Positions 2,961 through 54,133 of a stretch of 64,000 bases of DNA are shown here, one piece after another. The translations under genes were made by a program, and so were the position numbers. Source of the stretch: Deltaproteobacteria bacterium (GTDB lineage: Bacteria > Desulfobacterota > Desulfuromonadia > Desulfuromonadales > Geopsychrobacteraceae); the NCBI GenBank assembly GCA_024276905.1, contig JAJRWF010000148.1:9821-73820 (forward strand), read 5' to 3'. A model generated the notes under the pieces. That model did no database searches. It had not been told where the DNA came from and saw only the letters and a program-made list of their open reading frames with translations. How positions within the stretch are numbered: the first letter of the stretch is position 1; every line of letters starts with the position of its first letter.

Positions 2961-2969
2961 ACAACACTC

Positions 2970-3641: not shown

Positions 3642-3712
3642 TGGTCTCTCCATTTTTCGCCTCGATAGACACCCATACAATTATTCTTCCTGACTGCGGG
3701 CAATTGCCATTT

Positions 3713-31256: not shown

Positions 31257-31289
31257 AGAAGAGGGCCGGGAAAATCCCGGCCCTCTTCT
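31257..31289 (-). terminator. terminator closing the megacytochrome operon / peptide copy 2
   Basis: AGAAGAGGGCCGGG-AAAA-TCCCGGCCCTCTTCT. On the minus strand it is followed by a T-rich stretch (GTTTTCC). The core GGCCGGGA..TCCCGGCC is shared with the 29419 terminator. Confidence 0.75.
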
Positions 31290-34300: not shown

Positions 34301-37300
34301 TGCCTCCGATAGATCCACCATGACAGTAAACAGCAGCGCAGGTTTTTGTCCCATCACCTGCAACACTCCCGTTATTGTAGTTAACCCCGGTTTGACCAGA
34401 GTACGTTCCGGTAACAGAAGTGCCTCCACCACCGGCACTGAAATCGGCGTTGAAGTGGATATCAATATCGCCGCCGTTAGGCATCGCATTACCATTGTGG
34501 CAGGTATTGCAATCTGTATAGCCCTGAACATTGACGTGAGCATCATGGGCACCAGGGGTTACGCTGCCCGTAACTACCGGACTCCAGGCCAGACCAGTCT
34601 GGGTACTACCATCTGCATCGGCTGTAGTCGGCGGGTTGCCGTGACACGCGTCGCAAGCGGTCGGCTTGAAGCCCTGCTTGTGATTGTGACAGTTCATGCA
34701 ATCGGTGCTCAATTGGTGGTTCTGGTTGGTCGCCGTCGCGGCACTCATATCAAAAGCGTGGTGCTGTACCCCGTTGACCCGAGTTTCGTCCAGGGAGTGA
34801 CAGACTTCGCAGACACCGGAGCTTGCAGTATGTCCGCCGACAGCATCACCATAGTCACTTGTGGTGTCGCGAGTATCCGTCAAGGTGACGGCACTGGAGA
34901 TGGCACCGTTAGGCATGGTACTGCCATCGGGAAAGCTGATCGTCTGTCTGATCCGCTTGATATTGGTTGTTGTATCTACGTGACAGGTATCGCAGGTGAA
35001 TTCGCCATATTTGGCCCCTGCCAGACCCCAGCCACCCAGTGAATTCCACTTGCTGGAACCAGTCGCCGCCGAGTTATGCAACATTGAGTTGCTCGGCACC
35101 TGATCGGTGAAGATCTGAACCGCGTTACCGGTAACCCCATCGACAGCGTCAATGTAGGTGACACGCACCTGGTAAACCTGACCGTTAGTCAGCCCGGGAA
35201 TACTGTAACCATAGGGGCTGGCGGCATGGGCAATAACACCCGAGGTATTGGGGAAGGAGGTACTGTCGCAGTTGGTGAGCGACGGACAGGTTCCCCATTC
35301 AACGGTCAGGGTGTTGTCCGTATTGAAGTCACCACTGTACGGTGCACTGATATCGACCGACTTGTTTTTACTTGCGACCTGGACCACACCGGCTGCGGTA
35401 TCGAGAGCGTTATTAACCGAAATACTGTTACTGGTCGGACCAACAACTGAACCGCCGCAGTCAGGATCAGTACCGGTCACCTCAAAAGTTACCACCTGCG
35501 GACCAGTGGTGCCAAAGGCAGTGCTGTCCCAGGGGCTGGTGACCGTAGCACCGTTAATTTTGTAAGTGAAGCCCGTAGCATTCCCGGGAGCAGGGATGCT
35601 GAACAGAGTGGTCAGATCAACCGTACTGCCGCCAACAGTCTGCGACGGCGGAATAACAATTGACGAGGGGGTCGCGTCAGTACAGGTATTATCAATTGAA
35701 ACCGCTGTGATCTGCGGGGCAGAGACAGCATCACTACAATCGGGGTCACTACCATTAACATCGATAGTGATGTTGTTTTCAACCGCGGCAGTACCGCAGG
35801 CACTGGTATCCCAACTGTATTCCCAACGCGTGGTGCCAGCGTTCCAGGTCATGGCGGCGGCAGCAACATTACATGCGCTACTGCCAGCGACCGACACCTG
35901 CATTCCGCTCATGGTCGCCGGTGTTGTTTCCACACCGACCGCGGTCTGCAGAGTTACAACTCCGGTAGCAGGGTTGGGGTCACTGGTGGTCAGGGTCGCC
36001 AGGTCCTTGTCTGTGGTGTCAAAGGCTGTAGCAGCCGTCTGGGCATTCAGTATACCGCAGTCACCGGTTCCCTGGGCACGGAAGATGACGTTACCCGTAA
36101 TACAGGAAGTCGGAGTGTAGGTCGAACCATTAGCAACCCAGGCGCTCCAGCTCGTGCCGCCATCTTCGCTCCAGCTGACCTGGATTCCAGTAGCGGTGCC
36201 ACCAGCAGTCACGGTTACTGCACCAGTAATCGGCGTGGTACTCGGGGCTATGACTGGAGCAGTCAGGGTTGATGTTTCGGTACATGAACTCCAGGTAAAG
36301 CTCTGACTGGTACCCGGAAGAGCAGTACCGCCGACATAGTAAACTGTTCCACATTCAGGATCAGTTCCACGCGCGTAGAGATTGTAGCTGTTGCCCGTGG
36401 TTAAAACTGCAGTCGCTTCTTGCGGATCAAGGTTCCAGGCCAGGCGCTCTACTTCTGAGGATCGGGGTGTTCCAGTAAACGCAAGGTTGTCAAAAGAGAT
36501 GTCATTCTGATAGCCGGAGGCCGTTCCAACGACATAGCGGAAGCGCAGTTTAAAATCTGCGTTGGTATAGGCACTCAGGTCAATCGGGCCCTCGGAATAC
36601 CACTGAGCACCACCATCGCCAAGACGCACCATCCCATTAGCGACAACATATACATCCGCCACCCAACTGGTGCCGTTCCATGCGTCAAGGTGCAGCTCTG
36701 CATCTGCGTTAGTGCCACCGAGATCCATCATATAATCAAAATTGAAAGTAAGCGAATACTGACTTGCATCCTTAACGTTACTTTCCAGATACTGTGAACT
36801 TCCTGTGGTCGTGCCAGTCGCACAAGCATTCTGTCCGTTGGCAGACGCCTCAAGGTAAATCCAAGGACGTGGATTGCCAGCAACGGTTCCAGTGCCGCCG
36901 GAAGCTGTCCCGTTTGCATTATCCGCATAGCACCACGAATTAGTTCCATCACTCCCATTCACACCAATCCAGTTTGTCCAGCCGGTCTGAGCGGTATAGA
37001 GCGTTAAATCACCACCTGATGCTGCTGAAAAATCGTCAGTCTGAGGTGTAAACGGCGGGGCAAAACTACCTTCCGTCACCCGAAATTCCAGACTGGTCAA
37101 GTCAACCGGAGTAACAAAACTGGACCCAGTAAAATCACCTGCTGCGGAGGTCGTCCCGTTGAAGCTGATGGAAGATGGCGTTAGTTCGGTACAAGTCGGA
37201 GTTGTTACATTAGCCGTATTGGAATCAGCGCTGTCACAGGCGCCAGCAGTATTGTGCCCACGGACTGTATAGGAATAAGTGGTCCCAGCCGCTGCAGTTG

Positions 37301-38366
37301 CATCTGTATAAGAACCAACCGTTATGTTAGTCGCTATTTGCGCACCATCACGAAAAATCGTGTAATAATCGTTATTTGTCCCATCATAGGTCCAGGTCAG
37401 ATTGACCTGAGTAGAAGATGGTGCGTTGGCTGCTAAATCAGAGGGAGCAGTCGCTACACAGGGTGGCGTCTCAACGCAAGGAACAGCATTGGTGTAGGTA
37501 TCGTCTCGCTTCAACGTACGCTGAACCCGATCATTAATGTTATTGGCCTGCCATTTGACGAAACCCCAGTCTCCGTTGGCAATTCCGGCACCGGCAAAAT
37601 CTGCCGGAAAGGAAAACTGCCAGGTGGTACCAGTCTGAGTCACGTTAGTTGAAGCCGTCACATCAACCTTGGTTCCAAAATAATCGTTCAGTTCAACTTT
37701 TTTCAACTGGTTGTCTGAATTCGTAACAGTGACAGTTGCGTACACAGTGTCGCCATTCCCGAAAGTATCGGTCTGATTTGTCCGCGCGGCATCACTGTAA
37801 AACCACATTCCAGTTGCTGGAGAACCAAGCTGAACAAAACCACCAGCTTTATAATTGCCGTTATTGGCGTCCGAAACTTCAACCGCATAAAAATCGACGT
37901 TTGCGCCGCCGGTATTCCAACTGTAGCTATAGGTGTAGAATCCCCCTGTATGACCCGTTTCGGTCATAGCGACTTTGTCGAGAATTTTATTCTTCAGTGA
38001 GTCATCAACTTTCAATTCAAAAGCATCACGGTTGGCAGTAGGCACCTTGAAGGAAATCACGACCGTGTCTCCAACAGTGAACGCAATGCCAGCGGTCCCA
38101 CCGACGCTAGTCGTAAGCTGCTCACCGCTGCCGAGAGTAAAATCACCCGTCGACTGACAAACTGCAGCGAAGAGACTGCCGGCCGAAAGCATTACCGCCA
38201 AAACGGCCACCAAAGCCAGGTGTGCAAATCTGAACATCGGGGGGGTCCTCCAGATTCCATCCTTCATAGCCGTCCTCACCTCATTCCCAGTCACTTTATT
38301 CCCAATTAGATCATTCACTTGTCGATTACATGTGCCAAAGAAAACTTCCCGTAGTCGTTTCATCAT
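31374..38366 (-). CDS. 2330-aa chimeric surface protein: heme-free Ig/FN3/MAM-like N-terminal half plus C-terminal multiheme cytochrome (about 19 CxxCH and 5 CX3-4CH)
   Basis: Signal-like MFRFAHLALVAVLAVMLSAGSLFAA begins at residue 44 (alternative starts 38267 and 38237). FN3-like PSDLAANAPSSTQVNLTW...YSYTVRGHN. MAM/ConA-like ...FKLRFRYVVGTASGYQNDISFDNLAF. The first heme motif, CDTCH, appears only at about residue 1120. Confidence 0.9.
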   Translation of the reverse strand: MMKRLREVFFGTCNRQVNDLIGNKVTGNEVRTAMKDGIWRTPPMFRFAHLALVAVLAVMLSAGSLFAAVCQSTGDFTLGSGEQLTTSVGGTAGIAFTVGDTVVISFKVPTANRDAFELKVDDSLKNKILDKVAMTETGHTGGFYTYSYSWNTGGANVDFYAVEVSDANNGNYKAGGFVQLGSPATGMWFYSDAARTNQTDTFGNGDTVYATVTVTNSDNQLKKVELNDYFGTKVDVTASTNVTQTGTTWQFSFPADFAGAGIANGDWGFVKWQANNINDRVQRTLKRDDTYTNAVPCVETPPCVATAPSDLAANAPSSTQVNLTWTYDGTNNDYYTIFRDGAQIATNITVGSYTDATAAAGTTYSYTVRGHNTAGACDSADSNTANVTTPTCTELTPSSISFNGTTSAAGDFTGSSFVTPVDLTSLEFRVTEGSFAPPFTPQTDDFSAASGGDLTLYTAQTGWTNWIGVNGSDGTNSWCYADNANGTASGGTGTVAGNPRPWIYLEASANGQNACATGTTTGSSQYLESNVKDASQYSLTFNFDYMMDLGGTNADAELHLDAWNGTSWVADVYVVANGMVRLGDGGAQWYSEGPIDLSAYTNADFKLRFRYVVGTASGYQNDISFDNLAFTGTPRSSEVERLAWNLDPQEATAVLTTGNSYNLYARGTDPECGTVYYVGGTALPGTSQSFTWSSCTETSTLTAPVIAPSTTPITGAVTVTAGGTATGIQVSWSEDGGTSWSAWVANGSTYTPTSCITGNVIFRAQGTGDCGILNAQTAATAFDTTDKDLATLTTSDPNPATGVVTLQTAVGVETTPATMSGMQVSVAGSSACNVAAAAMTWNAGTTRWEYSWDTSACGTAAVENNITIDVNGSDPDCSDAVSAPQITAVSIDNTCTDATPSSIVIPPSQTVGGSTVDLTTLFSIPAPGNATGFTYKINGATVTSPWDSTAFGTTGPQVVTFEVTGTDPDCGGSVVGPTSNSISVNNALDTAAGVVQVASKNKSVDISAPYSGDFNTDNTLTVEWGTCPSLTNCDSTSFPNTSGVIAHAASPYGYSIPGLTNGQVYQVRVTYIDAVDGVTGNAVQIFTDQVPSNSMLHNSAATGSSKWNSLGGWGLAGAKYGEFTCDTCHVDTTTNIKRIRQTISFPDGSTMPNGAISSAVTLTDTRDTTSDYGDAVGGHTASSGVCEVCHSLDETRVNGVQHHAFDMSAATATNQNHQLSTDCMNCHNHKQGFKPTACDACHGNPPTTADADGSTQTGLAWSPVVTGSVTPGAHDAHVNVQGYTDCNTCHNGNAMPNGGDIDIHFNADFSAGGGGTSVTGTYSGQTGVNYNNGSVAGDGTKTCAAVYCHGGSIGGSGPVWDAAVVCGDCHGATAVTPPSTSSHATHAGTLALACNQCHGATAGAAGHMNGNVQWDVSALPTNAAGSATYAGTTTGNTGGLAPSAVYGNCSNVYCHFTSTPTWGGALSNGCASCHNNGAGEPWPSTGAHNAHFTALGVSLSTQVNNGTAVQAKCDYCHTGNTHADGTVQVSVAATYDDLSAGTPAYTTQCSNISCHGGQITPAWTGTIDANTQCTSCHKAESVATEYNSATSGMHGITGVVSGQNHGSSVACTSCHNGQPANHFSDTGLASSAMNRPAVTDFVAGITLGTSSDLDTCAMSCHKEGLDASRGVSTPWARLNNKTWASGGGAAGDECKTCHGIWGSWRANVLVNHANDWDTDGTPEVQANHAECETCHGFAPGATNANYTATWGTGDHGNGLITMNGPTPSTGAGYNSTNWGCDNACHGGASTSHNLADSSWGVGFGDFGGGSCDLCHAPGGTGPTVVYPAGNSGFTGELYGSHLKAVTADVVNGTTDWSLQCQKCHGFHSGDVQVANNTTVGINYTTHGGIWLGGTATGAKTTEAEICWTCHDINGISEWGLNTDTNGAYPDYNFGQMSTGNSNWLVGTWQSANFTYKEAAIQSTHTVNAAGSSAVTGAAYGRTESPDAVAKIRCSYCHDVHNRNQATSDTMTGKPYLRGSWFGNPYFEDGAPQNLSGSTTFETTTNYNRVPRGSISEDFFNASSQAKGGYWIDQNMTAQGVGTYPVSSNTAYDTVGEIAGLCTLCHGTSVNTMDYAPTGDNMWVGTNGHANAVIGGTGTASGNATDILDRSANEINSKGYTIEMGHSGGDGANYDRPEGYGYRDDGSYTPAYAPSHGFKEPEPYKNNWFEWGFIMAAGDQSANPGNPSPQLVNQYHQFTCSKCHNPHASRLPKLMITNCLDTQHNSWDDATGMSADTDTSTQTPSRSDGWRASNWSTSQNCHRVGAVGELGRGGDGLGDMDGKGWNTVTPW

Positions 38367-38476: not shown

Positions 38477-41400
38477 TTACTTGGGAAGCTGGGTATGGCA
38501 GAGGTCACAAGAGGCCCCCGCAGTACCCCAGGTTGCGGTATTGCCGTTATGGCAGGTCACCGTACAATTCTTGGTTGCACCGGTCCACATGGTCGCCGTA
38601 TTGAGGGCAACACCTTGATCGTGCGACGTGGTGCCCGCCTTGTAGCCGTTGGTCCGCGTCCAGTTGTTGTTCAACTCAGGCTCACCCGGGGTGAAATCCC
38701 GTACCTGGGCTTTGGACCTTAGCGGATTAACCGGAGCAAAGGTGACATCCCTGGTTCCGTTGACATGGAACGACTTATCAAGATCAGCCTGAACAATGAC
38801 TGTCTTGTCAGTCGCCACACCTGCGGTCCCATGACAGCTGACGCATGCCGTGTTGTTGCCGTTGAACCACTGACTGACGGTGCTGTTGTGGCAGACCGCA
38901 CAGGTAATGGTCAGCGCGGTAGTCACGTCACCATGACCGGCTCCACTGGCTCCCGCCTCGTTAAGCTTGGCATTGGTGCCATCGTAGATGTCATCACTGT
39001 GGATACCGATAACATGTTTCGGGTGGCTGCCCGTCAGCGGCTGATTGCCATGACAGTTCTGGCAGTAGTCGCCATTCGGATTAGTGAAAGTCCCCGTCAA
39101 GAAGTCGGGGCTGTTGCCAGGCGTGACACCATCACCATGACAGTAGACCGCCGAGCAGGTTCCGCCGGAATAAGCTGCGGTTGCACCATTCTGACCCTTG
39201 ATACTGCTCGGAGCATCAGTCGGGTCAAGAATCAGATCAAGGACTCCGTTCTGGTGATTGCTGGCATTCGCCGGGTGACAGAGGGCGCAACCAAAGTCGT
39301 AATCTGTCGCCGTAGAATGATCCACAGTGTCGCCATAGCTGCTGGCTGCCGACAGGACATGCTTGCCATGAGCGCCAGTCCGGGCGTTGAAAGTGTAGGT
39401 GCCGACGGTATTGAGATTATTACTGCCGCCAGTTGCCAGGTGGCAGGCGTTACAATCTGCCGCCGGACCAGCAAGACCGTTGGCCGGGAAGTGGGCCGAG
39501 GTTCCAAGGGTATGCGGGGCATCGTTGATATGGCAGATATTTGTACAGTTTCCGTTGGCCATGTCATAGCCGACCGAATCATTCAGTTCGACGGCGTGTC
39601 CCGGTGCGGAAAGTTCTGTCGGGGTACCGAGAGTCGAATTGGTGTCGTGATAGGTCGCCACATCATATGGCGCATTCGGCCGAACATGACAGGTCGCGCA
39701 GTTACTGTGCGTGCCGTCATTGATTGCTGTTTTGGTGCTGTGGTCCGGTGTCATCCCGGTCCGCCAGTTATTGAGATAACCGTGACAAACGTTACAGCGC
39801 GGATCGCCAACCGTATTGGAAACCGAATCGGCATCCTTGCTCCAAAGACGCTGCCAATTCCCAGCATCGCTGTGACAGCTGGAAGCACAGGAATCGCTGG
39901 TGCCGACGGCCGCCTGGGTGAATACGGTGATATTACCGCTGGCGCTGATACCACGATCATTATTGACCGCTGAATCAGTGGCGAAAGTGCCGTTGATATG
40001 GGTAGAACCAGCCGTATTTCCTATCACTGGCATACTGTTGTGACATTCGACACAACCGGTACCAAGAGTCGCGTCATGAACCTGGACCTCAGTCGGGTTG
40101 TTGACCACAGTGTGCAATCCGGTAGTCGGGTTGGCACCAGCAACACCTGGTGAATGACACATGGTACAGGTGCTGGCTCCGGCATCAGCCCAACCGAAGG
40201 TCCCGGTACCTGTGACTTTACTGTTGTGACAATCGATATTAGAGCAACTGCCCGCAGCAAAAGCAGCGTCGCTGTCAAGCGCGCCCCAGAGGCTCTTGGC
40301 GTGACGGATATTATCTTTATCAACAAAGACTTCGGCCGGCAGATTAGCCGTCGAACCATGATCACTGTCGTTCGTATTCGCTGCATGACAGTACTCACAG
40401 AGAGCCTTCTGATCAGAATCAGCAGTCGTACGGTTGAGCACTGCTGCGGCGCTGACACCGTAGACCCGCTGCGCGAGAACGTTCATATGTGTGAGGTGAC
40501 GTCCGGCATCGTCCGGTCCGGCTGCGCCGTCGTTGCCGTCCGGCCAGTAATTGCTGGCATTGGTGCCGACAGTGCCGCCACCGTGACAACCGTTACAACC
40601 GCTGGGTTTAAAGATCGGCGTGCTGGTATGGCTGTGACAGGTGGTGCATATCTGACCAGCGTTATGGGTTGCCAGTTCCTCAGTGGTGCGGTTGAAGTGC
40701 AGAACTTCGGTCGCATCGTGGCAAACCTGACAGACACCGTTGTTGGCTGCATTTCCGTAGCTGGCCCGCAGCGTACGATCCGTAAAGCCACTGACCGGGT
40801 GTGCCTGGATGGTTGACGCAATCATCGCATCCTGGTTGCCATTCTGACCATGCTGATCGTGACAGGTGACACAGATCAATGCATCATCAGAAGTGCCGCC
40901 GGCGGTCTGGGTATTGCCAAAGTGTGCCGCCGAGTTAGGAACGCCGGTGTGGCAGGCGTTACAGAAACCATTCGGATCAACATTGTAATCCTTGGTAGCG
41001 ATAGTATTCAGCCGGTTGGTGGTGTATCCGATATGGTCACCGGCATGATTGTGACAATCGACGCAAGCCTTGGCAACACCGGCCTTGCCGTGACCACTGT
41101 TGTCATAAGCCGTTCCGGCACGAACTGGTGCTAGAGCACCGTTGACATTTGCTTGATTGTAATCACCGTGACAGGTTTCACAAGCGACCGGCCCACCGGC
41201 ACTCCAGACCGCCTTGGCACCAATAGTGGCAAGATTCACCGCCGTGGTTCCACCATGACAGGTATCGCAAACCGTCACCGTGGCATCTCCGGCGATAGCG
41301 CCTGTTGCCAGTTCTTGTGCACCGGCAAAGCTGATCGTACCGTTTATGTGGGTTGCCTGACCGGCCATACTGACATTACCGGCATTAGCGGCGTGGCAGA

Positions 41401-44400
41401 GACCACAGTTGGTGCTGCCACCAGTACTTGCAAACGGACCGTACCTGATGTTGACATCAAGGTGTGTCGCATGGCCACCAGTGGTCGGCATATTGTTGTG
41501 GCAGAGCAGACAGTTCTGAATATTGGTGGTTCCCCAGGTGTAGGTACTGTTGTTCGGGGCACCGCCCTGACCGTTATTGTGACAGACAGTGGTTCCGCAA
41601 CTGCCGACACCAGAGTCGGGTAGCGCCACTTCACCTGAGTACTTGCCGTCCACCACCGGGCTGATCTGTGCACCGGTAATCACCGTGCCACCAAACTGGA
41701 CCGCCTGGTTAACAGTCGTCGGACCGGTGGTGGCAATGAAGTGCCCGTTGTTGACGTTGGTCGGGTGGCACTTGTCGCAACTGATGGTAATACCGAAGGT
41801 CGCCGTAGCATTGAGGTGGTTGGCATGAGTTCCTGTCGCCATCTTGGTGCCGACCTGATCATCACCATGACAGAGGGTACAGGAAGCAGTATCGGTGTCC
41901 CAATCTGCAGTCTTTGTGCTGTTGGATGGATCGTGGCAATAGGTGTTAGAGCAGGTATTGTTTACATCATCAAAGGTAATTCCTGCCTGGTCGAAACTGC
42001 TGTCATCAACCAAAGCATTATCCGCAATCGGGGTTGCTTTATTGGTCAGAGTCTCACCCTGATTGGCACCGGCAGCACCGGCAGCATCGAGACCGCTGAT
42101 ATGGCTGGTATCAGTCGGCAGTGCCGTCCCGGCATCATGACAATTGTCGCAAGTCAGACTTTGCGTCGTCACGTGACCGACATGAGCACCCGCTACTGGA
42201 GCAGCATTGGCTATATTATTATCATTGGTCCCGTTGTTATGACACGCGGTACAATTCAACCCGTTGGTATCAGTCCAAAAACCATCGGCAGCGCTGGAAG
42301 CATGACATGCCGAAGCGCAGCCTGCAGTCGCCGTGGAAAGACCGGTTTGAAGCTGAATAGTGCCATCCTGGTGGGTGTTGCTGCCACCGTCTCCACCTGT
42401 TGGAGTATATCCATTGACATCAGCACCATGACAGACAACGCACTCGCTGACGTCAAGCTGAATACTGCCGGCGATGTCAAGGTGCGCAGTATGTGTTGTC
42501 CCTACATAACTGAGATCCCCATGACAGGCTTCGCAGGAAGCGGCATTGGTCCAGGTTTTCGGATTTACCTGGTGACAGCTGACAGTACAACTTGACGGCG
42601 CCCCCTGGGTGTAGGAGAGAGTAACCGCCGACCCATTATAATTACCGCCTGCAACGACGTCGTTAAAACCGCTGACATTGGCTACAGCATTGAGATGGTT
42701 TCCGCCAGGCGTAATCTGGAAGCCCGGAGTCGCGGTACCACCATGGCAACTTTGACAACTGAGTCCATTCGACTGGCGCAAGGCACTCCAATGACTCTGG
42801 TGATCGCCAGTGACAGGGGGCTTCAGGTGACAGATCGTACACTTGTCAGCAGCCGTGTTATCGCCCCATACCGGGGATGGTACATACGCGAAGTAGGGAG
42901 CAGCAGTATCATCGTTAATACTATGACACTGCGAGGTTGAGCAGCTTCCGACACCGGTTGTGGGAATGCCGACTTCACCGCTGTAGGTCAGGCCAGCCAG
43001 AACTTCTAGAGTTCCATTACGGTGAGCGGTATTGATGCCGTTGTCGGTATGACACTCGGTACAGACGACATTATCACCTATCAAGGTCGCATTGTTCACA
43101 TGCTCCGAGTGACTGCCGGTCGCCATCGGCGTAGTGGCAGCAGTATCGTTGTGGCAGAGAGTACAGCTGGCGACGCTGACTCCCCACTGAGCCGACTTCG
43201 GATCTCCAGCATCATTTGACGGATTGTGACAAGTTGTATTGGAACACGTATTGGTGGTGTCGTTGAAACTATTTACGCCACCATTGAAGGCCTGATCATT
43301 GACAGTCGCCTCATCCGCCAAAGCAGTTCCCATATCGGTGAGGATGTTGGCGTCAGTATCTGCCAACAGCGCGGTACTGACAACATCATCAATGTGAGTC
43401 AGCGGATGAGTACCGGCAGAGTCAACGCTGCCATGACAGTCAGTACAGCTCAGCCCTGCGGTGATATGTTTGGCATGAGCTCCGCTTGCTGGTGGCTGGG
43501 CGTGACAGGCCGTACAATCGAGACCGTTAACGTCACCCCAGTTACCATCAGTTATTGATGAGGTATGACAGGCGTTGGTACAGGTCAGATCGGCCTGGAA
43601 ACCGACGGCAACATCCACATTTATCGTACCATTGCGGTGATTGCTGCCATTCCCGGTTGGAATAATCGAAGTGGTGTAGAAATCAACATCAGTGCCGTGA
43701 CAAAGAACACATTCGGACCGATCATCCTCAATCTTGGTGTTGAAGGTGTTCTTGTTGACATGCGACAGGTGCGGCTCGGTCGCCAGCAGGGTATCGTGAC
43801 AGGCGCCGCAGCTGTTGGCGTTGGGCTGGAAGATCGGAGTGTCGGTGTGTTTGTGGCACGAAGTACAAACGTTACCGGCGAAGTGCGTAGTATCTTCGTT
43901 GCCGATACGGTTGAAGTGGGTGACCTCACCGGGATCATGACAGACCTGGCAGATACCGCTGTTGTCGGCCTCCCAGTAACTGGCGCGCAGAGTCTTGTCC
44001 GTGAAATTGTTGACTGTCCGTCCACCAATGGTCCCCAGAATCATGGCATCGGTATTGGTTCCCATTCCCTGACCGTGGGGATTATGGCAGGTCGCGCAAT
44101 TCAGAGCATCATCGGAGGTGCCTCCGGCAGTCAGCGTATTGGCATAGTGAACTGAGCTGGTATGGCAACTGGTACAGAACGTGTTATCTGCAACCGCGGC
44201 TCCGATCAACTGTGGATCACCAGATGTGCCATCGAAGTGCTTGCCGGCACTGGTGTCGTGACAACCAATACAGTCCGGAGCGCCAGTCAGGGTCGAATCA
44301 CCATGGCCGGTGATATCAAAAGTATCTTTTGCCGGAGCCGTCGGGCCACTGATAACGGCAAAATCCGCCAGGGTTCCCTGGTGGCAGGTACGACAATTGA

Positions 44401-46726
44401 CACTGGCGGGAGTTACCCAGTCAGGCTCAGCGTCAACACCGGTCCCGGCCGCAGTAGCACCGTGACAGCTGTCACAGACTGTAGCTTTATAAGCAGCACC
44501 ACCCTGCAAGCTGGCAAAACCGTCAACGTGATCGACAGCATTGGTATCAGTGGCATTCCCATTGTGGGTGTGGCAGACATTACAAGCCAGCTGTGGACCA
44601 GTGATGTCGAAAACATGCTTGCCATGCGCGCCGGTCAGAGCGGCACCGGTGTCACCAGTCGCATTGACCTGGTGACAACTGCCACACTGTCCGCTGGCGG
44701 CGAGATCCCAGTCCGGAATAACCGAGACCGTTGCATTGGGTCCGGCTGAGTGGCAATAGATATTCTGGCAGGTACCATCAGTTCCGTAAACACCTGCACT
44801 TGCATTGAACTGGGTCAGACTCGAACCGTCAAAAACAACATCAGCTGTGCCGTTGACGTGCGTACCACCGATGGCACCGGTGGCGAGAGTCGTTGAGCTT
44901 GTAGCGGTAGAGGTATGACAAACCGCGCAATTATAACCTTTAGCCAAGTGCTTGAGGTGTGTTGCAGAGTTGCTCCGGTCGATGGGGTTGGTATCAGAAG
45001 GAGCACCGGGTGCATCCATAGTGTCTGAACTGTTCCCGTGACAGGCGTCGCAGGCGGTGGCCGCAATGGCATCATTAAAACTGCCGTTCTGCCAGGCGCC
45101 CGGATTGGCCAATACGGGTGCTGCCGCACGAGCTCCGCCATTACTGTGACAATACACTGCAGAGCAGGTTCCACTATCTCCGTCACCATCTGTTCCGGTC
45201 GGTGCATAGGCAGGAACCAGCCCATCGGTTGTTGCCAGACCGGTCAAGGTGCCGAAATCGACCTCCTGGAACGAACCTGAATTATGCCCGGCATGGCTGG
45301 CAGTGACAGAACCGGCGGGGTGACACTGATCGCAACTGAAACGGTAATCGGTTCCATTTACGTGTGCCGCGTGAGGTGTGTTTGACTCGTTGAATGCACT
45401 GGAGGATGTGGAATAATCGTTCCCGGTTCCAGAATCAAAGGCGTAGCCGTCGGGACCTCCGGGTGTATTTGCGCTGGGAGCATACCCATGACAAGTATTA
45501 CAGGCGCCGCCGAAGCTGCCGCTTGAGTTGTCGTGACTGTGGCATGCCGCACAAGTTGCGGCCGTACCAACAGCCAGATTGTTGTGCTTACCGGCACCAT
45601 CGACAGGAATCGTGTGACAATTCTGACAATAACCGGTGCCACCAGCATTGAACCACTCAGTCGTTGGGGATGTATAGTCCAGTCCCGACACGTTCCCCGT
45701 ACCGACACCGGCAGGGCTGTTGAGGGGGAGATCGACATTGGTAATGTTCTTGCGCAGAACATAGTAGTTGGGGCTTGTCTGATCGAAAGAGTGCCCGCTG
45801 TGGCAATCAAGGCAGCCGACCTTACTGGTGGGGCCGTGTGATTTGTAGGTGTGACAGGTCTGACAAAGACTGTTTTTATCGCCCGTCAAACGGCCACTGC
45901 CCTTGAGCATGCGGCCATCGCCGACACTGAGGGTCTGGCCCACGCCATCGACAGTCGCAGCATCGGAATCGGTAAAGTGAGCGCCATGACAGGTAGAACA
46001 GGTCATGTTGCCTGTTGCATCGAGTGCCATACCACTGTTCAGATTGGGAGTGAACGCCTGGAACCTGTTCGTTCCATCAGTGACATAACTGGCGTAATTC
46101 ACTTCCAGGGGGTGCGTCAGCCAGGCGTGTTCATTCGGGTTTGCTACGGTATTTCGGTCCCATTGAGTATGACAGTCAACGCACATGGCGTCTTTGGAAT
46201 CAACCCCCAGCTTGAGCAGTTTGGGGTTCGCCTTGATGGTGGAAAAATCGACTGCCAGGCCATGAGGATCGTGACAGCGCGCACAAGTCACCATGGAGCC
46301 CGACAGATTCTGGTTCCCATAAAATGCTTTAGCCGTTGGTGCCGAAGCGCCAGCAGCCGGATTGGTATCAGAAGCACTCCAGTTATGTGAAGATTCAGAA
46401 CCCGCCACAGCCCCCAGGGGACCCACCTTGGCAGTTCTTGAACCCAGGGCATCCGATGCCATATCTACCGAGAAGCTCCGCGACGGAGTCATCACAGGCC
46501 CACCGATATTTCTCAAATGGGCCAGACCCGCGCCACTGGTGGAACTCTGATCATGACAGTTCAGACAGATATTCCCTGTCAGGGCCGTCATGTCAGCTCC
46601 ATTTTTATGGCAGTTATCGCAGGCGAAATCGTGCACATAATAGTAGCTGGCCGCCGCTGCATTTTCCGCAGTGAAGCAGCAAATGACCGCCATTAAAACC
46701 AGAGGCAACAGAACTCTCATCTTCAT
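38477..46726 (-). CDS. 2749-aa giant multiheme c-type cytochrome (about 57 CxxCH and 14 CX3CH/CX4CH by manual count)
   Basis: Signal peptide MKMRVLLPLVLMAVICCFTAENAAA, GGGAGAG RBS. Heme motifs run end to end, including repeated C-x4-CH...CxxCH pairs (CSAVYCH, CQNIYCH, CSNTTCH...), as in the Geobacter CxxxxCH...CXXCH domain. Confidence 0.95.
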   Translation of the reverse strand: MKMRVLLPLVLMAVICCFTAENAAAASYYYVHDFACDNCHKNGADMTALTGNICLNCHDQSSTSGAGLAHLRNIGGPVMTPSRSFSVDMASDALGSRTAKVGPLGAVAGSESSHNWSASDTNPAAGASAPTAKAFYGNQNLSGSMVTCARCHDPHGLAVDFSTIKANPKLLKLGVDSKDAMCVDCHTQWDRNTVANPNEHAWLTHPLEVNYASYVTDGTNRFQAFTPNLNSGMALDATGNMTCSTCHGAHFTDSDAATVDGVGQTLSVGDGRMLKGSGRLTGDKNSLCQTCHTYKSHGPTSKVGCLDCHSGHSFDQTSPNYYVLRKNITNVDLPLNSPAGVGTGNVSGLDYTSPTTEWFNAGGTGYCQNCHTIPVDGAGKHNNLAVGTAATCAACHSHDNSSGSFGGACNTCHGYAPSANTPGGPDGYAFDSGTGNDYSTSSSAFNESNTPHAAHVNGTDYRFSCDQCHPAGSVTASHAGHNSGSFQEVDFGTLTGLATTDGLVPAYAPTGTDGDGDSGTCSAVYCHSNGGARAAAPVLANPGAWQNGSFNDAIAATACDACHGNSSDTMDAPGAPSDTNPIDRSNSATHLKHLAKGYNCAVCHTSTATSSTTLATGAIGGTHVNGTADVVFDGSSLTQFNASAGVYGTDGTCQNIYCHSAGPNATVSVIPDWDLAASGQCGSCHQVNATGDTGAALTGAHGKHVFDITGPQLACNVCHTHNGNATDTNAVDHVDGFASLQGGAAYKATVCDSCHGATAAGTGVDAEPDWVTPASVNCRTCHQGTLADFAVISGPTAPAKDTFDITGHGDSTLTGAPDCIGCHDTSAGKHFDGTSGDPQLIGAAVADNTFCTSCHTSSVHYANTLTAGGTSDDALNCATCHNPHGQGMGTNTDAMILGTIGGRTVNNFTDKTLRASYWEADNSGICQVCHDPGEVTHFNRIGNEDTTHFAGNVCTSCHKHTDTPIFQPNANSCGACHDTLLATEPHLSHVNKNTFNTKIEDDRSECVLCHGTDVDFYTTSIIPTGNGSNHRNGTINVDVAVGFQADLTCTNACHTSSITDGNWGDVNGLDCTACHAQPPASGAHAKHITAGLSCTDCHGSVDSAGTHPLTHIDDVVSTALLADTDANILTDMGTALADEATVNDQAFNGGVNSFNDTTNTCSNTTCHNPSNDAGDPKSAQWGVSVASCTLCHNDTAATTPMATGSHSEHVNNATLIGDNVVCTECHTDNGINTAHRNGTLEVLAGLTYSGEVGIPTTGVGSCSTSQCHSINDDTAAPYFAYVPSPVWGDNTAADKCTICHLKPPVTGDHQSHWSALRQSNGLSCQSCHGGTATPGFQITPGGNHLNAVANVSGFNDVVAGGNYNGSAVTLSYTQGAPSSCTVSCHQVNPKTWTNAASCEACHGDLSYVGTTHTAHLDIAGSIQLDVSECVVCHGADVNGYTPTGGDGGSNTHQDGTIQLQTGLSTATAGCASACHASSAADGFWTDTNGLNCTACHNNGTNDNNIANAAPVAGAHVGHVTTQSLTCDNCHDAGTALPTDTSHISGLDAAGAAGANQGETLTNKATPIADNALVDDSSFDQAGITFDDVNNTCSNTYCHDPSNSTKTADWDTDTASCTLCHGDDQVGTKMATGTHANHLNATATFGITISCDKCHPTNVNNGHFIATTGPTTVNQAVQFGGTVITGAQISPVVDGKYSGEVALPDSGVGSCGTTVCHNNGQGGAPNNSTYTWGTTNIQNCLLCHNNMPTTGGHATHLDVNIRYGPFASTGGSTNCGLCHAANAGNVSMAGQATHINGTISFAGAQELATGAIAGDATVTVCDTCHGGTTAVNLATIGAKAVWSAGGPVACETCHGDYNQANVNGALAPVRAGTAYDNSGHGKAGVAKACVDCHNHAGDHIGYTTNRLNTIATKDYNVDPNGFCNACHTGVPNSAAHFGNTQTAGGTSDDALICVTCHDQHGQNGNQDAMIASTIQAHPVSGFTDRTLRASYGNAANNGVCQVCHDATEVLHFNRTTEELATHNAGQICTTCHSHTSTPIFKPSGCNGCHGGGTVGTNASNYWPDGNDGAAGPDDAGRHLTHMNVLAQRVYGVSAAAVLNRTTADSDQKALCEYCHAANTNDSDHGSTANLPAEVFVDKDNIRHAKSLWGALDSDAAFAAGSCSNIDCHNSKVTGTGTFGWADAGASTCTMCHSPGVAGANPTTGLHTVVNNPTEVQVHDATLGTGCVECHNSMPVIGNTAGSTHINGTFATDSAVNNDRGISASGNITVFTQAAVGTSDSCASSCHSDAGNWQRLWSKDADSVSNTVGDPRCNVCHGYLNNWRTGMTPDHSTKTAINDGTHSNCATCHVRPNAPYDVATYHDTNSTLGTPTELSAPGHAVELNDSVGYDMANGNCTNICHINDAPHTLGTSAHFPANGLAGPAADCNACHLATGGSNNLNTVGTYTFNARTGAHGKHVLSAASSYGDTVDHSTATDYDFGCALCHPANASNHQNGVLDLILDPTDAPSSIKGQNGATAAYSGGTCSAVYCHGDGVTPGNSPDFLTGTFTNPNGDYCQNCHGNQPLTGSHPKHVIGIHSDDIYDGTNAKLNEAGASGAGHGDVTTALTITCAVCHNSTVSQWFNGNNTACVSCHGTAGVATDKTVIVQADLDKSFHVNGTRDVTFAPVNPLRSKAQVRDFTPGEPELNNNWTRTNGYKAGTTSHDQGVALNTATMWTGATKNCTVTCHNGNTATWGTAGASCDLCHTQLPK

Positions 46727-46786: not shown

Positions 46787-47542
46787 TTACTTAATATGGC
46801 ACGACAGGCACATGGCACTGCCCGTATTCGGCATAGCAAGAAACGGATCGTATGTCGGATCAGCAATATAATCAACATGCGGGTCATGACAGGTGCCGCA
46901 CTCAAGACGGTCTGTCCCGCCGAAAAAGTGCAGATCCGAGTTCACAGAAGCAACATCAACAAACTCAGCCGGCTTTTCTGCCTGCACTGCTGAATAACTG
47001 AAAGAAATCGGATGGTCATCACTCAGATCAGCGGTATCTGCAATATTCACGCGGGTTGCACCTATGCGCGCCGTTCCCTGAATGAAGTTCAGTGCCGTAT
47101 CGGGCGTCCCATTTGATGCATTGATCAAATCACCGACCGCGATACTGCCATCGTGGCAGGAAAGACAGAGCAGCGATTCGGTATTGACCGCACGATTACT
47201 GATTCCCTTGAGGTAAGTCGAAAGCGTCGAGCTGTCATAGTGGGTATAGGCTTTCCCTGTCAAGGATGACAGGTTACGGTTCCACAGGGGGGTGTTCAAC
47301 TCACCGCCGTGCGGGGTATGACAAAAGACACAGATACGGTCTTCGACGCCCTCGAGATAAGCTCCAGGAACGCCGAGCCACGCCGGATTCGCCGGATTGG
47401 TACTGGGACCCGACGTAGAAAGGTTGTGGACAGTGGAATATACGTTACTGGCACCACGTGCATATGCATTTCCCGTGCACAAAACGCCCACCACCAAGCA
47501 CAGAAGCAACACCCTGAACGGTACTTTTTCAAACATTGTCAA
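46787..47542 (-). CDS. tetraheme c-type cytochrome (paired-CXXCH type)
   Basis: CVFCHTPHG, CLSCH, CGTCH, CLSCH. Signal peptide present. Track start 47542 is a TTG, and an ATG lies at 47536. Confidence 0.9.
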   Translation of the reverse strand: MTMFEKVPFRVLLLCLVVGVLCTGNAYARGASNVYSTVHNLSTSGPSTNPANPAWLGVPGAYLEGVEDRICVFCHTPHGGELNTPLWNRNLSSLTGKAYTHYDSSTLSTYLKGISNRAVNTESLLCLSCHDGSIAVGDLINASNGTPDTALNFIQGTARIGATRVNIADTADLSDDHPISFSYSAVQAEKPAEFVDVASVNSDLHFFGGTDRLECGTCHDPHVDYIADPTYDPFLAMPNTGSAMCLSCHIK

Positions 47543-47584
47543 GACCCTTTCTTGACTGAAAAATAAACATCCGCTAATTATAGA

Positions 47585-50383
47585 TCAATTCAAAATATTG
47601 GCAAGTTCATTTACGGCAACTGCTGCCGGGCTGCCCGCACCAAGCAGGGCAGCGAGTTGTTCGGCTTTTTTCTGGGCCGAAACATACTTGGCACGCCCGA
47701 CACGACTGGCGATATTGGCCACCCGACCAATCAGGCCCGGAGCCTGCGCCAAGACTTGCTGCTCGACATCTGCAAGCTTGGTCAGCAATGCCTGTTTATA
47801 GGCCGGAGCAAAACCGCCCTGCTGACCGTTTGCGACGACAAGCGAACCACTTGTGGTCCCGAAAACCAGATCATTATAGTTGCTGCCTGCAAAGTTCAAG
47901 ACAAAAACACTGCTGGCTCCGGTGATGCTCACGCCGGTGGGCAGCAGTGAAGCGACCTGACCGCTACTCATAACGGCCTCAAACAGTTCCCCCTGAATGA
48001 GCAACATCAATTCGCGGACACCATCGGCGTCCCAGTCGGTGAAAAGAGGGACCGCAGGCGCGGTCAAAACACCGATCGTAACCTGAGAATTCAGCAGCGG
48101 CGAAGCATCATCTCCAACGTTATCAAAAAGCAGAAGATCGTTACCGGAACCGACAATCAGATCCTTGTCGCCATCATTATCCAGATCAGCAACTGCCGGA
48201 AAAGCTTGCGATCCGACCGTAACCAGCCATTGGCCAACAGTGGAAAAGAAGTTGGGGCTTGCATCACCGAGGAAAAGCTTGACCGAACCATCAGCCCCGC
48301 CGACCAAGAGGTCAAGCCGGTCGTCATTGTTCCAGTCAACCAGGCAGGGGGCTGCACCCGCAATCTGAGCCAACGGGAGTTGCTGACCAGCGGCCGCAAA
48401 GACAACCCGATTCGGGGTGGAACTCGACCCGGTCATTTTACCCGCAGTCAGATCTTCAATCGTGTCATTACTTTGTGGGTTCTGGATCGAAGCGCCCGGA
48501 TAGAATTTGATATAGCCATTGTCAGCCAGAAGCAGATCAAGGATACCGTCCCGGTCAAGATCAGCAACCACCGGTGCGATATCAGTACCCGATATCGCCT
48601 GCCCTGCCAGGTTCAGATCGTGAGTGGCAAACCCGCTCGCGATACGCGCCCCGGACAGATCGGCAACGACGTCGACAGAACCATTCTGTGCAAGTGCAAC
48701 CGTTACGACATAAGGCTCAAACCCAGCGGCTTCGACAACGATTGAATAGCTTCCTTCAGTCAAATCACGTATCTCGACCGGAGCAATTCCCAGGGCACGG
48801 CCTGCATAGCCATGGTGACCGCTGAGATAAACCCTGGAACCCGCGACACTGGAGGATACCCTGAGGACTGAAGGCTGATAAATGAAATTACCGCTGTTGG
48901 TCGATACAGTTTCAAGCGCAGTATTATCAATCGCAACAACCTGCCAATTATAACTGTTTCCTGGAGTCAGTCCGGACGAAAGGCTGGCAACCGCAGCGCT
49001 GGTACCGGTATAGACACCACTTGCAAGCGGTGCCCCCCCGGCAGAGATTTCGACACGGTAACTGAGAGCAAAGTTGGGGTCGGGATCGCTCGACGCAGTC
49101 CAGCTCAGCACGTCAGCCCCTCCGGCAGCCCCGCCGGCCAGAAATGTCGTCAGGACGGGCGCCGCGGGAGCTTCCTCGACAGCGTTGATGTCAATGGGGG
49201 TTGCCGCAGACCAGCTCGATGTCAGCAGACCATCGTCAGCCTGAACCTGCCAAGTATAACTGGCATTTTCCACCAAAGTAACATTGACGGTAGCCAGGGT
49301 CGGATTTGCTCCCTCGGCAACACTGAATGCGGCGACTGAAACACCGCCAGCATCAAGCACGCGCACATTGTAAGTCAGGGGGTTATTTTCAGCATCACTG
49401 GCATTGTTGAATTGCAGTACGGGAGTTGCACTGGCTACTTCACCGAATGTTACCGGCACCGGAACACTCGGCGGTGTATTGGCCTGAACGGGAGTCGACC
49501 CGCCATCAACACCGTAAACATCCACACGGTTACCCGCCCAAATCACAAAAAGACGGTTGGTCAGTCTGTCGTAGGCCATCGAGGCAGGACGGTTGATCGT
49601 CCCGTTGTCAAAGGTCCCCAACAAGGTCGAGGGAAGCGCCATGACTCGGATATTGCCAGACTCAGAATCTCCTACATAGAGCCGGTTGGCACCATCAAAT
49701 GCCAACCCGCCGAAAAACTGGAGCCGGGTACCGAAAGCAGTCGCTGCATCAAACTGACTTTTGAATGTATAGTCTGAATGAAAAACATAAAGCTGGGGGG
49801 TCTGGGTCCCCTCAAAAACCGGGTCTGCAACATAGATGTCACCCAGCGCCGGATCGACCCCGATATTGGAAATACCGCCAAAATTAACCCCCGCCAGCAA
49901 ATTCACACCGCCAGCAGCCGGGAAAATCTTGACCTGCCGCGTACTGGTGTCGGAGCAAAGGACATCACCATTCGCTCCAATGGCAATAACACCCGCATCC
50001 TGAAATTCACCGGCGCCACTGCCAAGGTAGCCCTGCAATGCCCCGTTGGCATTCAGCACCGCAACCTTGTCGCCTGCCGAAGCGTAAATCGCACTACCAT
50101 CTGCTGCGACCGCCAGTCCAAGGCCCGAAATCGTCACAGCGTTAAAACTGGCCACGCGGGTACCGAACTTATCGAACTTGACGATATTTTTGCCGCCGGT
50201 ATTGGCCACGTAGAGATTGCCCGCATCGTCCACGGCAACCCGACTGGGCCGGAACAAACCATCGGTTATCTGGCCCAAAGGCTGGATCACTGGCATGGCA
50301 GCGTAGGCGGAGCCTTGCCATATCACTCCAAATAACAGCGATATCACCGCAAGCAGGCAGATATTGATGCAGGACCGGGTCAT
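47585..50383 (-). CDS. secreted NHL-repeat beta-propeller / Ig-like / PEGA / FG-GAP(VCBS)-repeat protein
   Basis: GGAGG lies 8 nt before the ATG at 50383 (MTRSCINICLLAVISLLFGVIWQGSAYA); the track ORF extends to 50566. NHL-like RPSRVAVDDAGNLYVANTGG. PEGA-like SYSIVVEAAGFEPYVV. FG-GAP-like DLDRDGILDLL, DWNNDDRLDLLVGG, DLDNDGDKDLIVG. Confidence 0.85.
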   Translation of the reverse strand: MTRSCINICLLAVISLLFGVIWQGSAYAAMPVIQPLGQITDGLFRPSRVAVDDAGNLYVANTGGKNIVKFDKFGTRVASFNAVTISGLGLAVAADGSAIYASAGDKVAVLNANGALQGYLGSGAGEFQDAGVIAIGANGDVLCSDTSTRQVKIFPAAGGVNLLAGVNFGGISNIGVDPALGDIYVADPVFEGTQTPQLYVFHSDYTFKSQFDAATAFGTRLQFFGGLAFDGANRLYVGDSESGNIRVMALPSTLLGTFDNGTINRPASMAYDRLTNRLFVIWAGNRVDVYGVDGGSTPVQANTPPSVPVPVTFGEVASATPVLQFNNASDAENNPLTYNVRVLDAGGVSVAAFSVAEGANPTLATVNVTLVENASYTWQVQADDGLLTSSWSAATPIDINAVEEAPAAPVLTTFLAGGAAGGADVLSWTASSDPDPNFALSYRVEISAGGAPLASGVYTGTSAAVASLSSGLTPGNSYNWQVVAIDNTALETVSTNSGNFIYQPSVLRVSSSVAGSRVYLSGHHGYAGRALGIAPVEIRDLTEGSYSIVVEAAGFEPYVVTVALAQNGSVDVVADLSGARIASGFATHDLNLAGQAISGTDIAPVVADLDRDGILDLLLADNGYIKFYPGASIQNPQSNDTIEDLTAGKMTGSSSTPNRVVFAAAGQQLPLAQIAGAAPCLVDWNNDDRLDLLVGGADGSVKLFLGDASPNFFSTVGQWLVTVGSQAFPAVADLDNDGDKDLIVGSGNDLLLFDNVGDDASPLLNSQVTIGVLTAPAVPLFTDWDADGVRELMLLIQGELFEAVMSSGQVASLLPTGVSITGASSVFVLNFAGSNYNDLVFGTTSGSLVVANGQQGGFAPAYKQALLTKLADVEQQVLAQAPGLIGRVANIASRVGRAKYVSAQKKAEQLAALLGAGSPAAVAVNELANILN

Positions 50384-50466: not shown

Positions 50467-50482
50467 TGCAAAGATGATACCA
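50467..50482 (-). promoter_or_regulatory. sigma-54 -24/-12 promoter of the megacytochrome operon
   Basis: The minus strand reads TGGTAT-CATCT-TTGCA with exact consensus spacing (GG..N10..GC). It lies 84 nt upstream of the ATG at 50383 and directly downstream of the sigma-54 activator gene. Confidence 0.6.
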
Positions 50483-53530: not shown

Positions 53531-54133
53531 TCAACGCTGCGGCGTTTCGCGATTACCAGGCCGGGGTGGTGAACTTTCAACCGACGGTGCGCCCCCCTGA
53601 GAACCCGGTTTCGCAGCAGGCTGTTTTTTCTTGGGGACATAGACAAACTCCCACTCGCTGTAAAATCCACGGCCCTCAAAATCCTTATTCTCCTCAGAAA
53701 AGTTGCCCTGCTTAAATGGTTCCTCTTCAAGCGAAGAACGCACCCCCTTGATCCGCCCACCCTTGTCCTTGAGCAAGACCCAGTCGTCACCCGTCATCGG
53801 GTCAGCATATAGGCGGCGCAGATGTCTTCGTGTCTGCAGAAAACGTGGATCCTTGAGCAGATACTCAAGTTTCGAGGGATAAAGGCTCGGAGCACCCTGC
53901 CCATGGGAAGAACGGTAATAGGAACCGATAGCCTTGCGGATCTGCCCCCCCTTCCAGAGCAGATCGGCTTCACGCGCCCGCTGGGTCAAACTGCTCCAGG
54001 TCGCCCCGGCAACTCCCATTGAAAGCCCGAGAATCGACATCAAAACCAATACCGGCACCAAGGACACACCGGACTCACTCCTGAACAGGCTCAAGGGCGC
54101 TATTGTAGAGATGACTGGCTCAGCTTTTATCAT
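53531..54133 (-). CDS. pseudopilin-like (GspG-like) protein lacking the canonical Glu5
   Basis: SG|VSLVPVLVLMSILGL hydrophobic N-terminus, then ...IRKAIGSYY...YPSKLEYLLKD...ADPMTGDDWVLL, a GspG-like pattern. Position +5 is Pro rather than Glu. Confidence 0.5.
   Translation of the reverse strand: MIKAEPVISTIAPLSLFRSESGVSLVPVLVLMSILGLSMGVAGATWSSLTQRAREADLLWKGGQIRKAIGSYYRSSHGQGAPSLYPSKLEYLLKDPRFLQTRRHLRRLYADPMTGDDWVLLKDKGGRIKGVRSSLEEEPFKQGNFSEENKDFEGRGFYSEWEFVYVPKKKQPAAKPGSQGGAPSVESSPPRPGNRETPQR

Follow-up and report, generated by a model that had tools for sequence, protein, structure and literature searches.

Giant single-chain multiheme cytochromes have repeatedly been noticed in the genomes of metal- or electrode-respiring bacteria and, to our knowledge, none of them has been purified, localised or solved. 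In the case of DSOUD_0664 from Desulfuromonas soudanensis, 69 heme-binding motifs were reported and the protein was predicted to be extracellular (PMC4914508). A 2024 survey of 84 Desulfuromonadia genomes found a tail of motif counts reaching 87, counted CX3CH and CX4CH (three or four residues between the two cysteines) as recognised heme motifs, presented AlphaFold models of long single-chain "nanowire" cytochromes and predicted long single-chain heme wires (PMC11492766). We describe here a 71-heme-motif cytochrome gene of the CxxxxCH/CxxCH-domain type, at positions 38477..46726 on the minus strand of a 64,000-nucleotide (nt) stretch, hereafter the window, from a deltaproteobacterium of the Geopsychrobacteraceae (GenBank assembly GCA_024276905.1, contig JAJRWF010000148.1, positions 9,821 to 73,820). 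The gene was identified from its open reading frame (ORF), its motif count, matches to TIGR01904 and Pfam models, and its orthologs.

Judged from its published description, DSOUD_0664 resembles this protein: both are giant cytochromes of about 70 hemes, predicted to be extracellular, encoded beside an OmcE-like tetraheme paralogue in marine or subsurface Desulfuromonadales. The published count was however made by Cxx(x)CH, which would give 63 for the protein of the window, and the two architectures probably differ in detail. The dodecaheme GSU1996 of G. sulfurreducens (3OV0) is likewise a single chain of tandem triheme c7-type units forming an elongated heme chain, but it holds 12 hemes against 71 motifs here, and its units of about 75 amino acids (aa) contain CxxCH only, whereas those of the giant cytochrome span about 100 aa around a CX3-4CH centre. 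Each domain of GSU1996 has one His-Met heme. The giant cytochrome is predicted to be almost wholly His-ligated, unlike GSU1996, as only three methionines are invariant over its 15-16 units.

A presumed common task, long-range electron transfer along stacked hemes, links the protein to OmcS, OmcE and OmcZ, and an OmcE homolog is encoded directly upstream. In those wires, subunits of 4 to 8 hemes polymerise through His ligation from one subunit to the next, whereas the length of the giant cytochrome is set by a single polypeptide of fixed size; a PDB sequence search gave no match of the giant protein to 7TFS, 6EF8-type or OmcZ chains. With MtrC, OmcA and MtrF it shares the PF22113 domain (MtrC/MtrF domains II/IV), which matched several segments, the best being aa 845-981 (44 bits on a fragment). 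No PDB sequence match to MtrC, MtrF or OmcA was obtained, and the giant cytochrome differs from these proteins in having neither a lipoprotein signal nor MtrA/MtrB-type partners nearby. What PF22113 matches is a generic module for the packing of five hemes. In porin-cytochrome conduits (MtrCAB, Pcc, Ext), the cytochrome gene is clustered with those of an outer-membrane beta-barrel porin and a periplasmic multiheme partner; no porin-like gene was found in the conserved cluster of the window or at syntenic loci.

Motif content, conservation and family

The reading frame is uninterrupted, encodes 2749 aa and starts with an ATG located 5 nt downstream of the ribosome-binding site GGGAGAG. An exact pattern count revealed 57 CxxCH, 6 CX3CH and 8 CX4CH motifs, 71 in total. 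They begin at aa 36, and the final one (aa 2740-2744) ends 5 residues short of the C-terminus. The sequence-only reading, an earlier inspection of the window, had counted about 57 CxxCH plus about 14 wider motifs by eye, from residue ~35 to the last 10 residues, and had proposed an exact count as a check; number and span were both confirmed, and all the non-canonical strings that it had listed are present in the protein, CSAVYCH occurring twice. All 71 CH dipeptides of the protein fall inside a motif, as do 142 of its 144 cysteines, the remaining two belonging to the signal peptide. The density is one site per 38.7 aa. Shuffling the protein (n=2000) produced a mean of 1.3 motifs and at most 6, compared to 71 observed.

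The N-terminus displays a hydrophobic stretch (aa 1-27) and, behind it, a cleavage region rich in Ala, and equivalent N-termini were found in the orthologs. We annotated this stretch as a Sec-type signal peptide (MKMRVLLPLVLMAVICCFTAENAAAAS; 46646..46726, minus strand), based on the hydrophobic segment and with a putative cleavage site. It contains no conserved lipobox, and the orthologs have no cysteine in this stretch. The protein can thus be described as a single-chain c-type cytochrome whose export by the Sec route is predicted from its hydrophobic N-terminus. The calculated mass of the mature apoprotein is ~278 kDa, or ~322 kDa with 71 hemes, with a calculated isoelectric point of 5.4.

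A search among 5.8 billion proteins identified eight full-length colinear orthologs of 2695-2780 aa, sharing 39-65% identity with the giant cytochrome over 99-100% of the query. Those of Geopsychrobacter electrodiphilus (2706 aa, 65% identity) and Geothermobacter hydrogeniphilus (2744 aa, 61% identity) belong to the same family, have the same number and order of heme sites and lie in the same operon, and they differ from it by sequence divergence only. The six others are metagenomic (2695-2780 aa, 39-59% identity). No match above 61% identity was found among 185,579 species representatives scanned.

The giant cytochrome was aligned with its eight orthologs. All 71 sites were kept in place in this nine-way alignment: the 57 CxxCH motifs all stay CxxCH and the 14 non-canonical sites all stay non-canonical, with a spacing that sometimes switches between 3 and 4 residues. 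The CX3CH motif CASSCH at aa 2280 (nt ~39872-39889) is replaced by CX8CH (CMPSGALSACH) and CX9CH (CGGTGGILGACH) in orthologs P0007 and P0009. Besides the 71 proximal histidines, the invariant positions include 66 non-motif histidines, out of the 86 present in the giant cytochrome, and three methionines only (M895, M1787 and M1968). The invariant non-motif histidines, about one per heme, are candidate sixth ligands. Column identity was 0.31-0.49 over aa 1-1400 as compared to 0.55-0.66 over aa 1400-2749. Since the 71 sites are fixed and 66 histidines are invariant, all sites, CX3CH and CX4CH included, are very probably loaded with heme, with mostly bis-histidine (bis-His) ligation.

The protein falls into an annotated family. 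The TIGR01904.2 model ("CxxxxCH/CxxCH domain c-type cytochrome") matched it over 10 stretches with 156 bits for a cutoff of 27 (expectation value, E, 1.5e-46), and PF09698 reached 45.2 bits for a cutoff of 21.7. The Pfam matches across its modules comprise PF09698, PF14522 and PF22113, with the models Cytochrome_C7, Cytochrom_c3_2, MtrC/MtrF_II-IV and GSu_C4xC__C2xCH. The homologs P0002 and P0003, together with many proteins from metagenome-assembled genomes (MAGs), already bear the name "CxxxxCH/CxxCH domain c-type cytochrome" at NCBI or JGI. On these matches, the giant cytochrome appears as a species-level ortholog new to an annotated, widespread and experimentally uncharacterised family.

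The earlier reading had implied that such a protein is unusual, which is not supported, as relatives in the literature and in databases equal or exceed its 71 hemes. Motif counts reached 103 among the first 102 homologs. A profile of its 12-heme supermodule (described below) was searched against 1.84 billion representatives and matched 3797 clusters (50% identity) at E <=1e-3, of which 1008 remained at E <=1e-30. In a sample of 233 proteins, made up of the homologs and of the best 150 supermodule-profile matches, 55 carried 71 motifs or more and six carried 100 or more, with a top value of 151 in a protein of 5264 aa. Relatives with 103-151 motifs are well beyond the maximum of 87 reported by the 2024 Desulfuromonadia survey. 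Current concepts are therefore unchanged, the family, the motif types and higher heme counts being already on record. The locus is a clean and intact example, with cultured relatives in G. electrodiphilus and G. hydrogeniphilus. As a separate observation, the proteins P0105, P0108, P0133, P0103, P0106 and P0039 carry 151, 126, 111, 108, 108 and 103 C-X2-4-CH motifs, respectively, in single chains of 3815-5341 aa.

Repeat architecture and its age

Comparison of the whole protein with itself by BLASTP gave the diagonal only, and repeats were mapped by searching the full-length sequence with fragments of 150 aa (BLASTP). Off-diagonal repeats were present, as the sequence-only reading had expected of a dot-plot. 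Alignment around the non-canonical motifs revealed a triheme unit of about 100 aa with the pattern CxxCH ... (T)H-x-N-G ... CX3-4CH ... W ... CxxCH. The centre is CX3-4CH in 14 copies of this unit and CxxCH in two more (aa 715/751/778 and 1774/1820/1849). The non-canonical motifs all occupy the middle position of a unit, with CxxCH on either side within the same ~100 aa (14 of 14), the next CxxCH following at +18 to +38 residues in all 14 cases. The description of these motifs as regularly interleaved with CxxCH was thus exact.

From the N-terminus onwards, the 71 sites are arranged as follows. The signal peptide precedes an N-terminal region with 10 CxxCH (aa 28-455; 45362..46645, minus strand, as are all features of this gene), which shows the lowest conservation within the protein (31-46% column identity) and matches Pfam Paired_CXXCH_1 and Cytochrome_C7 in addition to its motif map. 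Triheme units T1 and T2 come next (44636..45361; CxxCH-CX4CH-CxxCH at aa 465/521/559 and 600/653/681), recognised by unit alignment and by two stretches of PF09698 similarity. They are followed by a nine-heme segment A (aa 698-977; 43796..44635), composed of the triheme-like unit with the canonical centre at 715/751/778 and of a hexaheme part with six CxxCH; this segment gave the MtrC/MtrF_II-IV match (44 bits on a fragment). Supermodule B (aa 998-1420; 42467..43735) consists of four triheme units, T3-T6, that is 12 hemes, as established by fragment BLASTP and unit alignment. Supermodule B' (aa 1421-1858; 41153..42466) is its tandem copy, also with 12 hemes, made of T7-T9 and of a last unit which has a CxxCH centre. 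A second nine-heme segment, A' (aa 1749-2048; 40583..41482), is a copy of segment A by BLASTP; its first unit overlaps the end of supermodule B', and its hexaheme part follows. The C-terminal region (aa 2095-2749; 38480..40444), well conserved by column identity and assigned by unit alignment and Pfam matches, contains T11-T14, one extra CxxCH at aa 2609 and T15.

The two supermodules are 38% identical overall. Their segments share 33-45% identity, with E values down to 3e-30: aa 998-1098 and 1421-1530 are 45% identical (E 1e-15), aa 1060-1194 and 1481-1622 40% (E 6e-25), and aa 1129-1268 and 1560-1716 40% (E 3e-30). All motif cysteines and histidines of the supermodule are invariant, as well as H32, H95, H98, H214, H217, H242, H332, H335 and H373 (module numbering). 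The directly repeated supermodule of about 425 aa noticed earlier corresponds to this pair. A module of about 135 aa, for which roughly half identical residues had been estimated, also recurs: aa 845-968 and 1916-2041 are 59% identical (E 4e-44). Its extent is larger than had been noted, as it belongs to the nine-heme duplication of aa 698-977 and 1749-2048 (segments A and A'; 30-59% identity, E 3e-10 to 4e-44). The nucleotide coordinates proposed for these repeats were right to within ~20 nt.

Both supermodule copies are present in the eight orthologs, and they are 33-42% identical to each other inside every one of them. Orthologous copies are 38-85% identical and mostly closer than the paralogous copies within one protein. 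The duplication is therefore older than the ortholog group, and no concerted evolution took place. No DNA-level repeat longer than 35 nt was detected within the gene, which indicates that the copies are old and do not result from an assembly artefact. The proposal that the protein grew by segmental duplication is hence supported in a nested and ancient form, in which a triheme unit would have given rise to a four-unit supermodule and the latter to a tandem pair, with a separate nine-heme duplication.

The supermodule profile searched against PDB retrieved GSU1996 (3ov0_A) with E 1e-3 and 21.5 bits, a marginal score, and a single-sequence search gave no GSU1996 match. By sequence-based search, no close structural template for the triheme unit was found in PDB.

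Proposed function and its alternatives

The heme density and the roughly one invariant distal histidine per heme fit a continuous heme chain, and a role as a wire is plausible. The reading that we moderately favour is that of a fully heme-loaded 71-site chain that conducts electrons tens of nanometres far, at the outer surface of the cell or beyond it. The periplasmic cytochrome c maturation machinery would attach heme at every site, and conserved histidines would provide the sixth ligand for nearly all hemes, giving a dense chain of low-spin bis-His hemes with one heme per ~39 residues. Solved heme wires have a rise of 0.8-1.0 nm per heme. The giant cytochrome, if extended, would form an elongated chain of roughly 55-75 nm, able to conduct electrons by analogy with the solved multiheme "nanowire" cytochromes, and it would act on the outer surface, or farther out, of a Desulfuromonadales bacterium that respires metals or electrodes. 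Its co-expressed partners would be the OmcE-like tetraheme cytochrome, the secreted beta-propeller protein and the 24-heme protein, whose large N-terminal part is free of hemes. A sigma-54 promoter under the adjacent two-component system would drive expression, the kinase with its heme-c motif being a likely redox sensor.

Several observations weigh against a conducting wire of this kind. The conserved cluster contains no porin gene, no lipobox or lipoprotein signal and no secretion gene, and no porin-like gene was found in the syntenic loci, so that the extracellular location is argued by analogy. About 2-5 hemes are left without an identified invariant distal ligand. AlphaFold2 modelling of the 12-heme supermodule (23 sequences) gave a predicted local distance difference test score (pLDDT) of 39.8, which is unusable; a two-unit hexaheme piece (66 sequences) reached a pLDDT of 61.5 with a predicted template modelling score of 0.48, and Foldseek returned 0 matches for it in PDB. 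PDB searches with the giant protein remained marginal, with E 1e-3 for GSU1996 (3OV0) and E 3e-4 for reaction-centre cytochromes.

The main alternative to conduction is charge storage. The giant cytochrome would then act as an electron store, or capacitor, that buffers charge on the cell surface or in the periplasm while an acceptor is lacking, a role put forward for poly-c7 cytochromes of the GSU1996 type. The triheme repeats do resemble the c7-domain array of GSU1996, with Cytochrome_C7 matches along the whole chain and the marginal 3OV0 profile match, and the missing porin and secretion genes in the operon would also fit. Storage is moreover listed among two rationales for very heme-rich chains (PMC11492766). 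However, a ~322 kDa chain, probably longer than the width of the periplasm, would be a poor fit to that compartment, and both the OmcE-like neighbour and the protein with a large, possibly adhesive, non-heme N-terminal part point outward. Conduction and storage are not exclusive, and the present data fit a wire and a charge store alike. Taken by itself as the explanation of the protein, storage seems to us rather unlikely.

We regard as clearly less probable the possibility that the giant cytochrome is a redox enzyme or a substrate-binding terminal reductase, in which one or a few hemes with open coordination would be fed by the others. The 66 invariant histidines and three invariant methionines fall about two short of one invariant sixth ligand for each of the 71 hemes, and the motif at aa 2280 is widened to CX8CH or CX9CH in two orthologs. 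Long spacers mark special hemes in MccA-type enzymes (cited in PMC11492766). Yet the protein shows no similarity above noise to the catalytic modules of NrfA, HAO, MccA or OTR, and the missing ligands may be non-invariant histidines among the 86 non-motif ones.

A comparably improbable and, if anything, slightly weaker alternative is that only the 57 CxxCH motifs bind heme, the 14 CX3CH and CX4CH motifs being structural, as a disulfide or another metal site, or unoccupied. Our literature search yielded no direct biochemical evidence of heme occupancy for the CxxxxCH/CxxCH domain. The conservation pattern nevertheless speaks for occupancy: the 14 sites are all kept in position in the eight orthologs, always as C-Xn-C-H with the histidine retained, and each lies in the same register of the repeated unit with its own conserved histidine nearby. 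Furthermore, the centre at aa 1820 is an ordinary CxxCH that aligns with the paralogous CX3CH at aa 1380, and in other cytochromes the attachment of heme c to CX3CH and CX4CH is well established (PMC11492766).

Finally, the repetitiveness of the protein is the single feature that would evoke an artefact of assembly or annotation, such as a pseudogene or a repeat that was collapsed or joined into a chimera, and we rejected an artefact, as well as a recent duplication, because colinear full-length orthologs with the same 71 sites occur in independent isolates and MAGs with 99-100% query coverage, the copies are only ~38-59% identical as proteins with no DNA repeat above 35 nt, and the frame is unbroken and preceded by a ribosome-binding site.

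Three features make this locus a practical target: 71 sites fixed down to 39% identity, about one invariant distal histidine per heme, and a conserved operon that includes a regulator. It could be used to ask if protein wires of fixed length, reaching tens of nanometres, exist in nature, and how CX3-4CH sites mature.

The conserved gene cluster

The giant gene lies in an operon-like cluster that is kept in Geopsychrobacter, Geothermobacter and at least seven Desulfuromonadales MAGs, that is in at least nine genomes; a looser version was found in one Nitrospirota MAG. It starts with the genes of two small proteins, which are followed in turn by those of a sensor kinase, a sigma-54 regulator, a propeller protein, the OmcE-like tetraheme cytochrome, the 71-heme protein and a 24-heme protein. 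Canonical omcE clusters encode a large beta-barrel protein together with beta-propeller lipoproteins (bioRxiv 10.1101/2025.10.22.684050). The operon of the giant cytochrome differs from them in having no beta-barrel gene.

Directly upstream of the giant gene, a 251-aa tetraheme cytochrome (46787..47542, minus strand) is encoded next to it in at least nine genomes. It matched the OmcE filament of G. sulfurreducens in PDB (7TFS, E 1.1e-21) as well as 9YUQ (E 1e-19), and its four CxxCH motifs together with the TPH, DHP and DPH histidines align with OmcE. In D. soudanensis, the OmcE-like DSOUD_0663 adjoins DSOUD_0664, and the filament subunit observed in this organism is DSOUD_2954, explicitly not DSOUD_0663 (bioRxiv 10.1101/2025.10.22.684050). 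Since DSOUD_0663 and DSOUD_0664 show the same pairing and DSOUD_0663 is not the filament subunit, the 251-aa protein is best regarded as an OmcE paralogue. A sigma-70-like site matching 11 of 12 consensus positions (47577-47604, minus strand; pattern match only) overlaps the end of the propeller gene, before the OmcE-like gene.

The first gene of the operon (47585..50383, minus strand), with its start taken at the ATG behind AGGAGG, encodes a 932-aa secreted beta-propeller protein with NHL, Ig-like, PEGA and FG-GAP domains, as indicated by Pfam matches, a signal peptide and synteny. A sigma-54-type promoter-like element, TGGTATCATCTTTGCA (50467..50482, minus strand), is located ~85 nt upstream of it, where it may function as the operon promoter. 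The relaxed pattern TGGYAY-N5-TTGCA had this single match in the window, for 0.2 expected, and 17 of 100 shuffles had at least one. As this pattern was derived from the window's own intergenic sequence, the single match is not independent, and the evidence lies in conservation: the element is kept at the same place in Geopsychrobacter and Geothermobacter. With one mismatch allowed, the strict consensus TGGCAC-N5-TTGC matched no more often than expected by chance and never at the appropriate position.

A sigma-54-dependent response regulator with receiver, AAA+ and HTH_8 domain matches (50594..51964, minus strand) is 74-87% identical in the syntenic loci. The adjacent sensor histidine kinase (52013..53491, minus strand), identified by Pfam, has two transmembrane segments and a periplasmic Mcp40H-20/dCache-like sensor domain. 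This domain carries the CxxCH motif CFRCH (aa 143-147, nt 53051-53065), kept in all eight syntenic loci. The conserved motif in the sensor domain suggests that the kinase senses redox state through heme, and it may control the cytochrome operon in this way. Two small genes without Pfam match, encoding proteins of 200 and 225 aa, lie directly upstream of the kinase (53531-54797, minus strand) and are conserved in the syntenic loci. A single hydrophobic segment lies at the N-terminus of the 200-aa protein, and the 225-aa protein is acidic and rich in Ala, Pro and Glu.

Downstream of the giant gene, a 2330-aa protein is encoded at 31374..38366 (minus strand), as defined by motif count, domain searches and synteny. 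Its C-terminal half contains 24 heme motifs (19 CxxCH, 2 CX3CH and 3 CX4CH). The N-terminal ~1100 aa contain cysteines, have no heme motif and gave a sub-threshold FN3 signal only; the Geothermobacter ortholog has a MAM match. The protein may combine a heme chain with a domain for binding or adhesion. A hairpin with a 15-bp GC-rich stem, terminator-like on both strands (31257..31289; pattern match only), is found 85 nt past this last gene and likely marks the end of the operon.

It is conceivable, and in our opinion rather speculative, that the eight-gene cluster forms a distinct extracellular electron-transfer apparatus, in which fixed-length wires of ~60 nm would work with the OmcE-like paralogue or be primed or capped by it. 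Such an apparatus would differ from polymeric nanowires and from porin-cytochrome conduits, and the triheme unit with its obligatory CX3-4CH centre would be a fold without a solved representative. The locus would gain in interest only with evidence that the conserved operon is such a distinct apparatus.

A ResB-like gene of System II cytochrome c biogenesis is present ~4 kb beyond the operon (26074-27387, minus strand). Its candidacy as a dedicated heme lyase for the non-canonical sites is unsupported: it has no adjacent CcsA/ResC-like gene and lies outside the conserved synteny. Further away, in the region 688-3680 (minus strand), two ORFs of 390 and 362 aa without Pfam match follow a CsgG-like gene (2970-3680) encoding a curli-type secretion channel lipoprotein.

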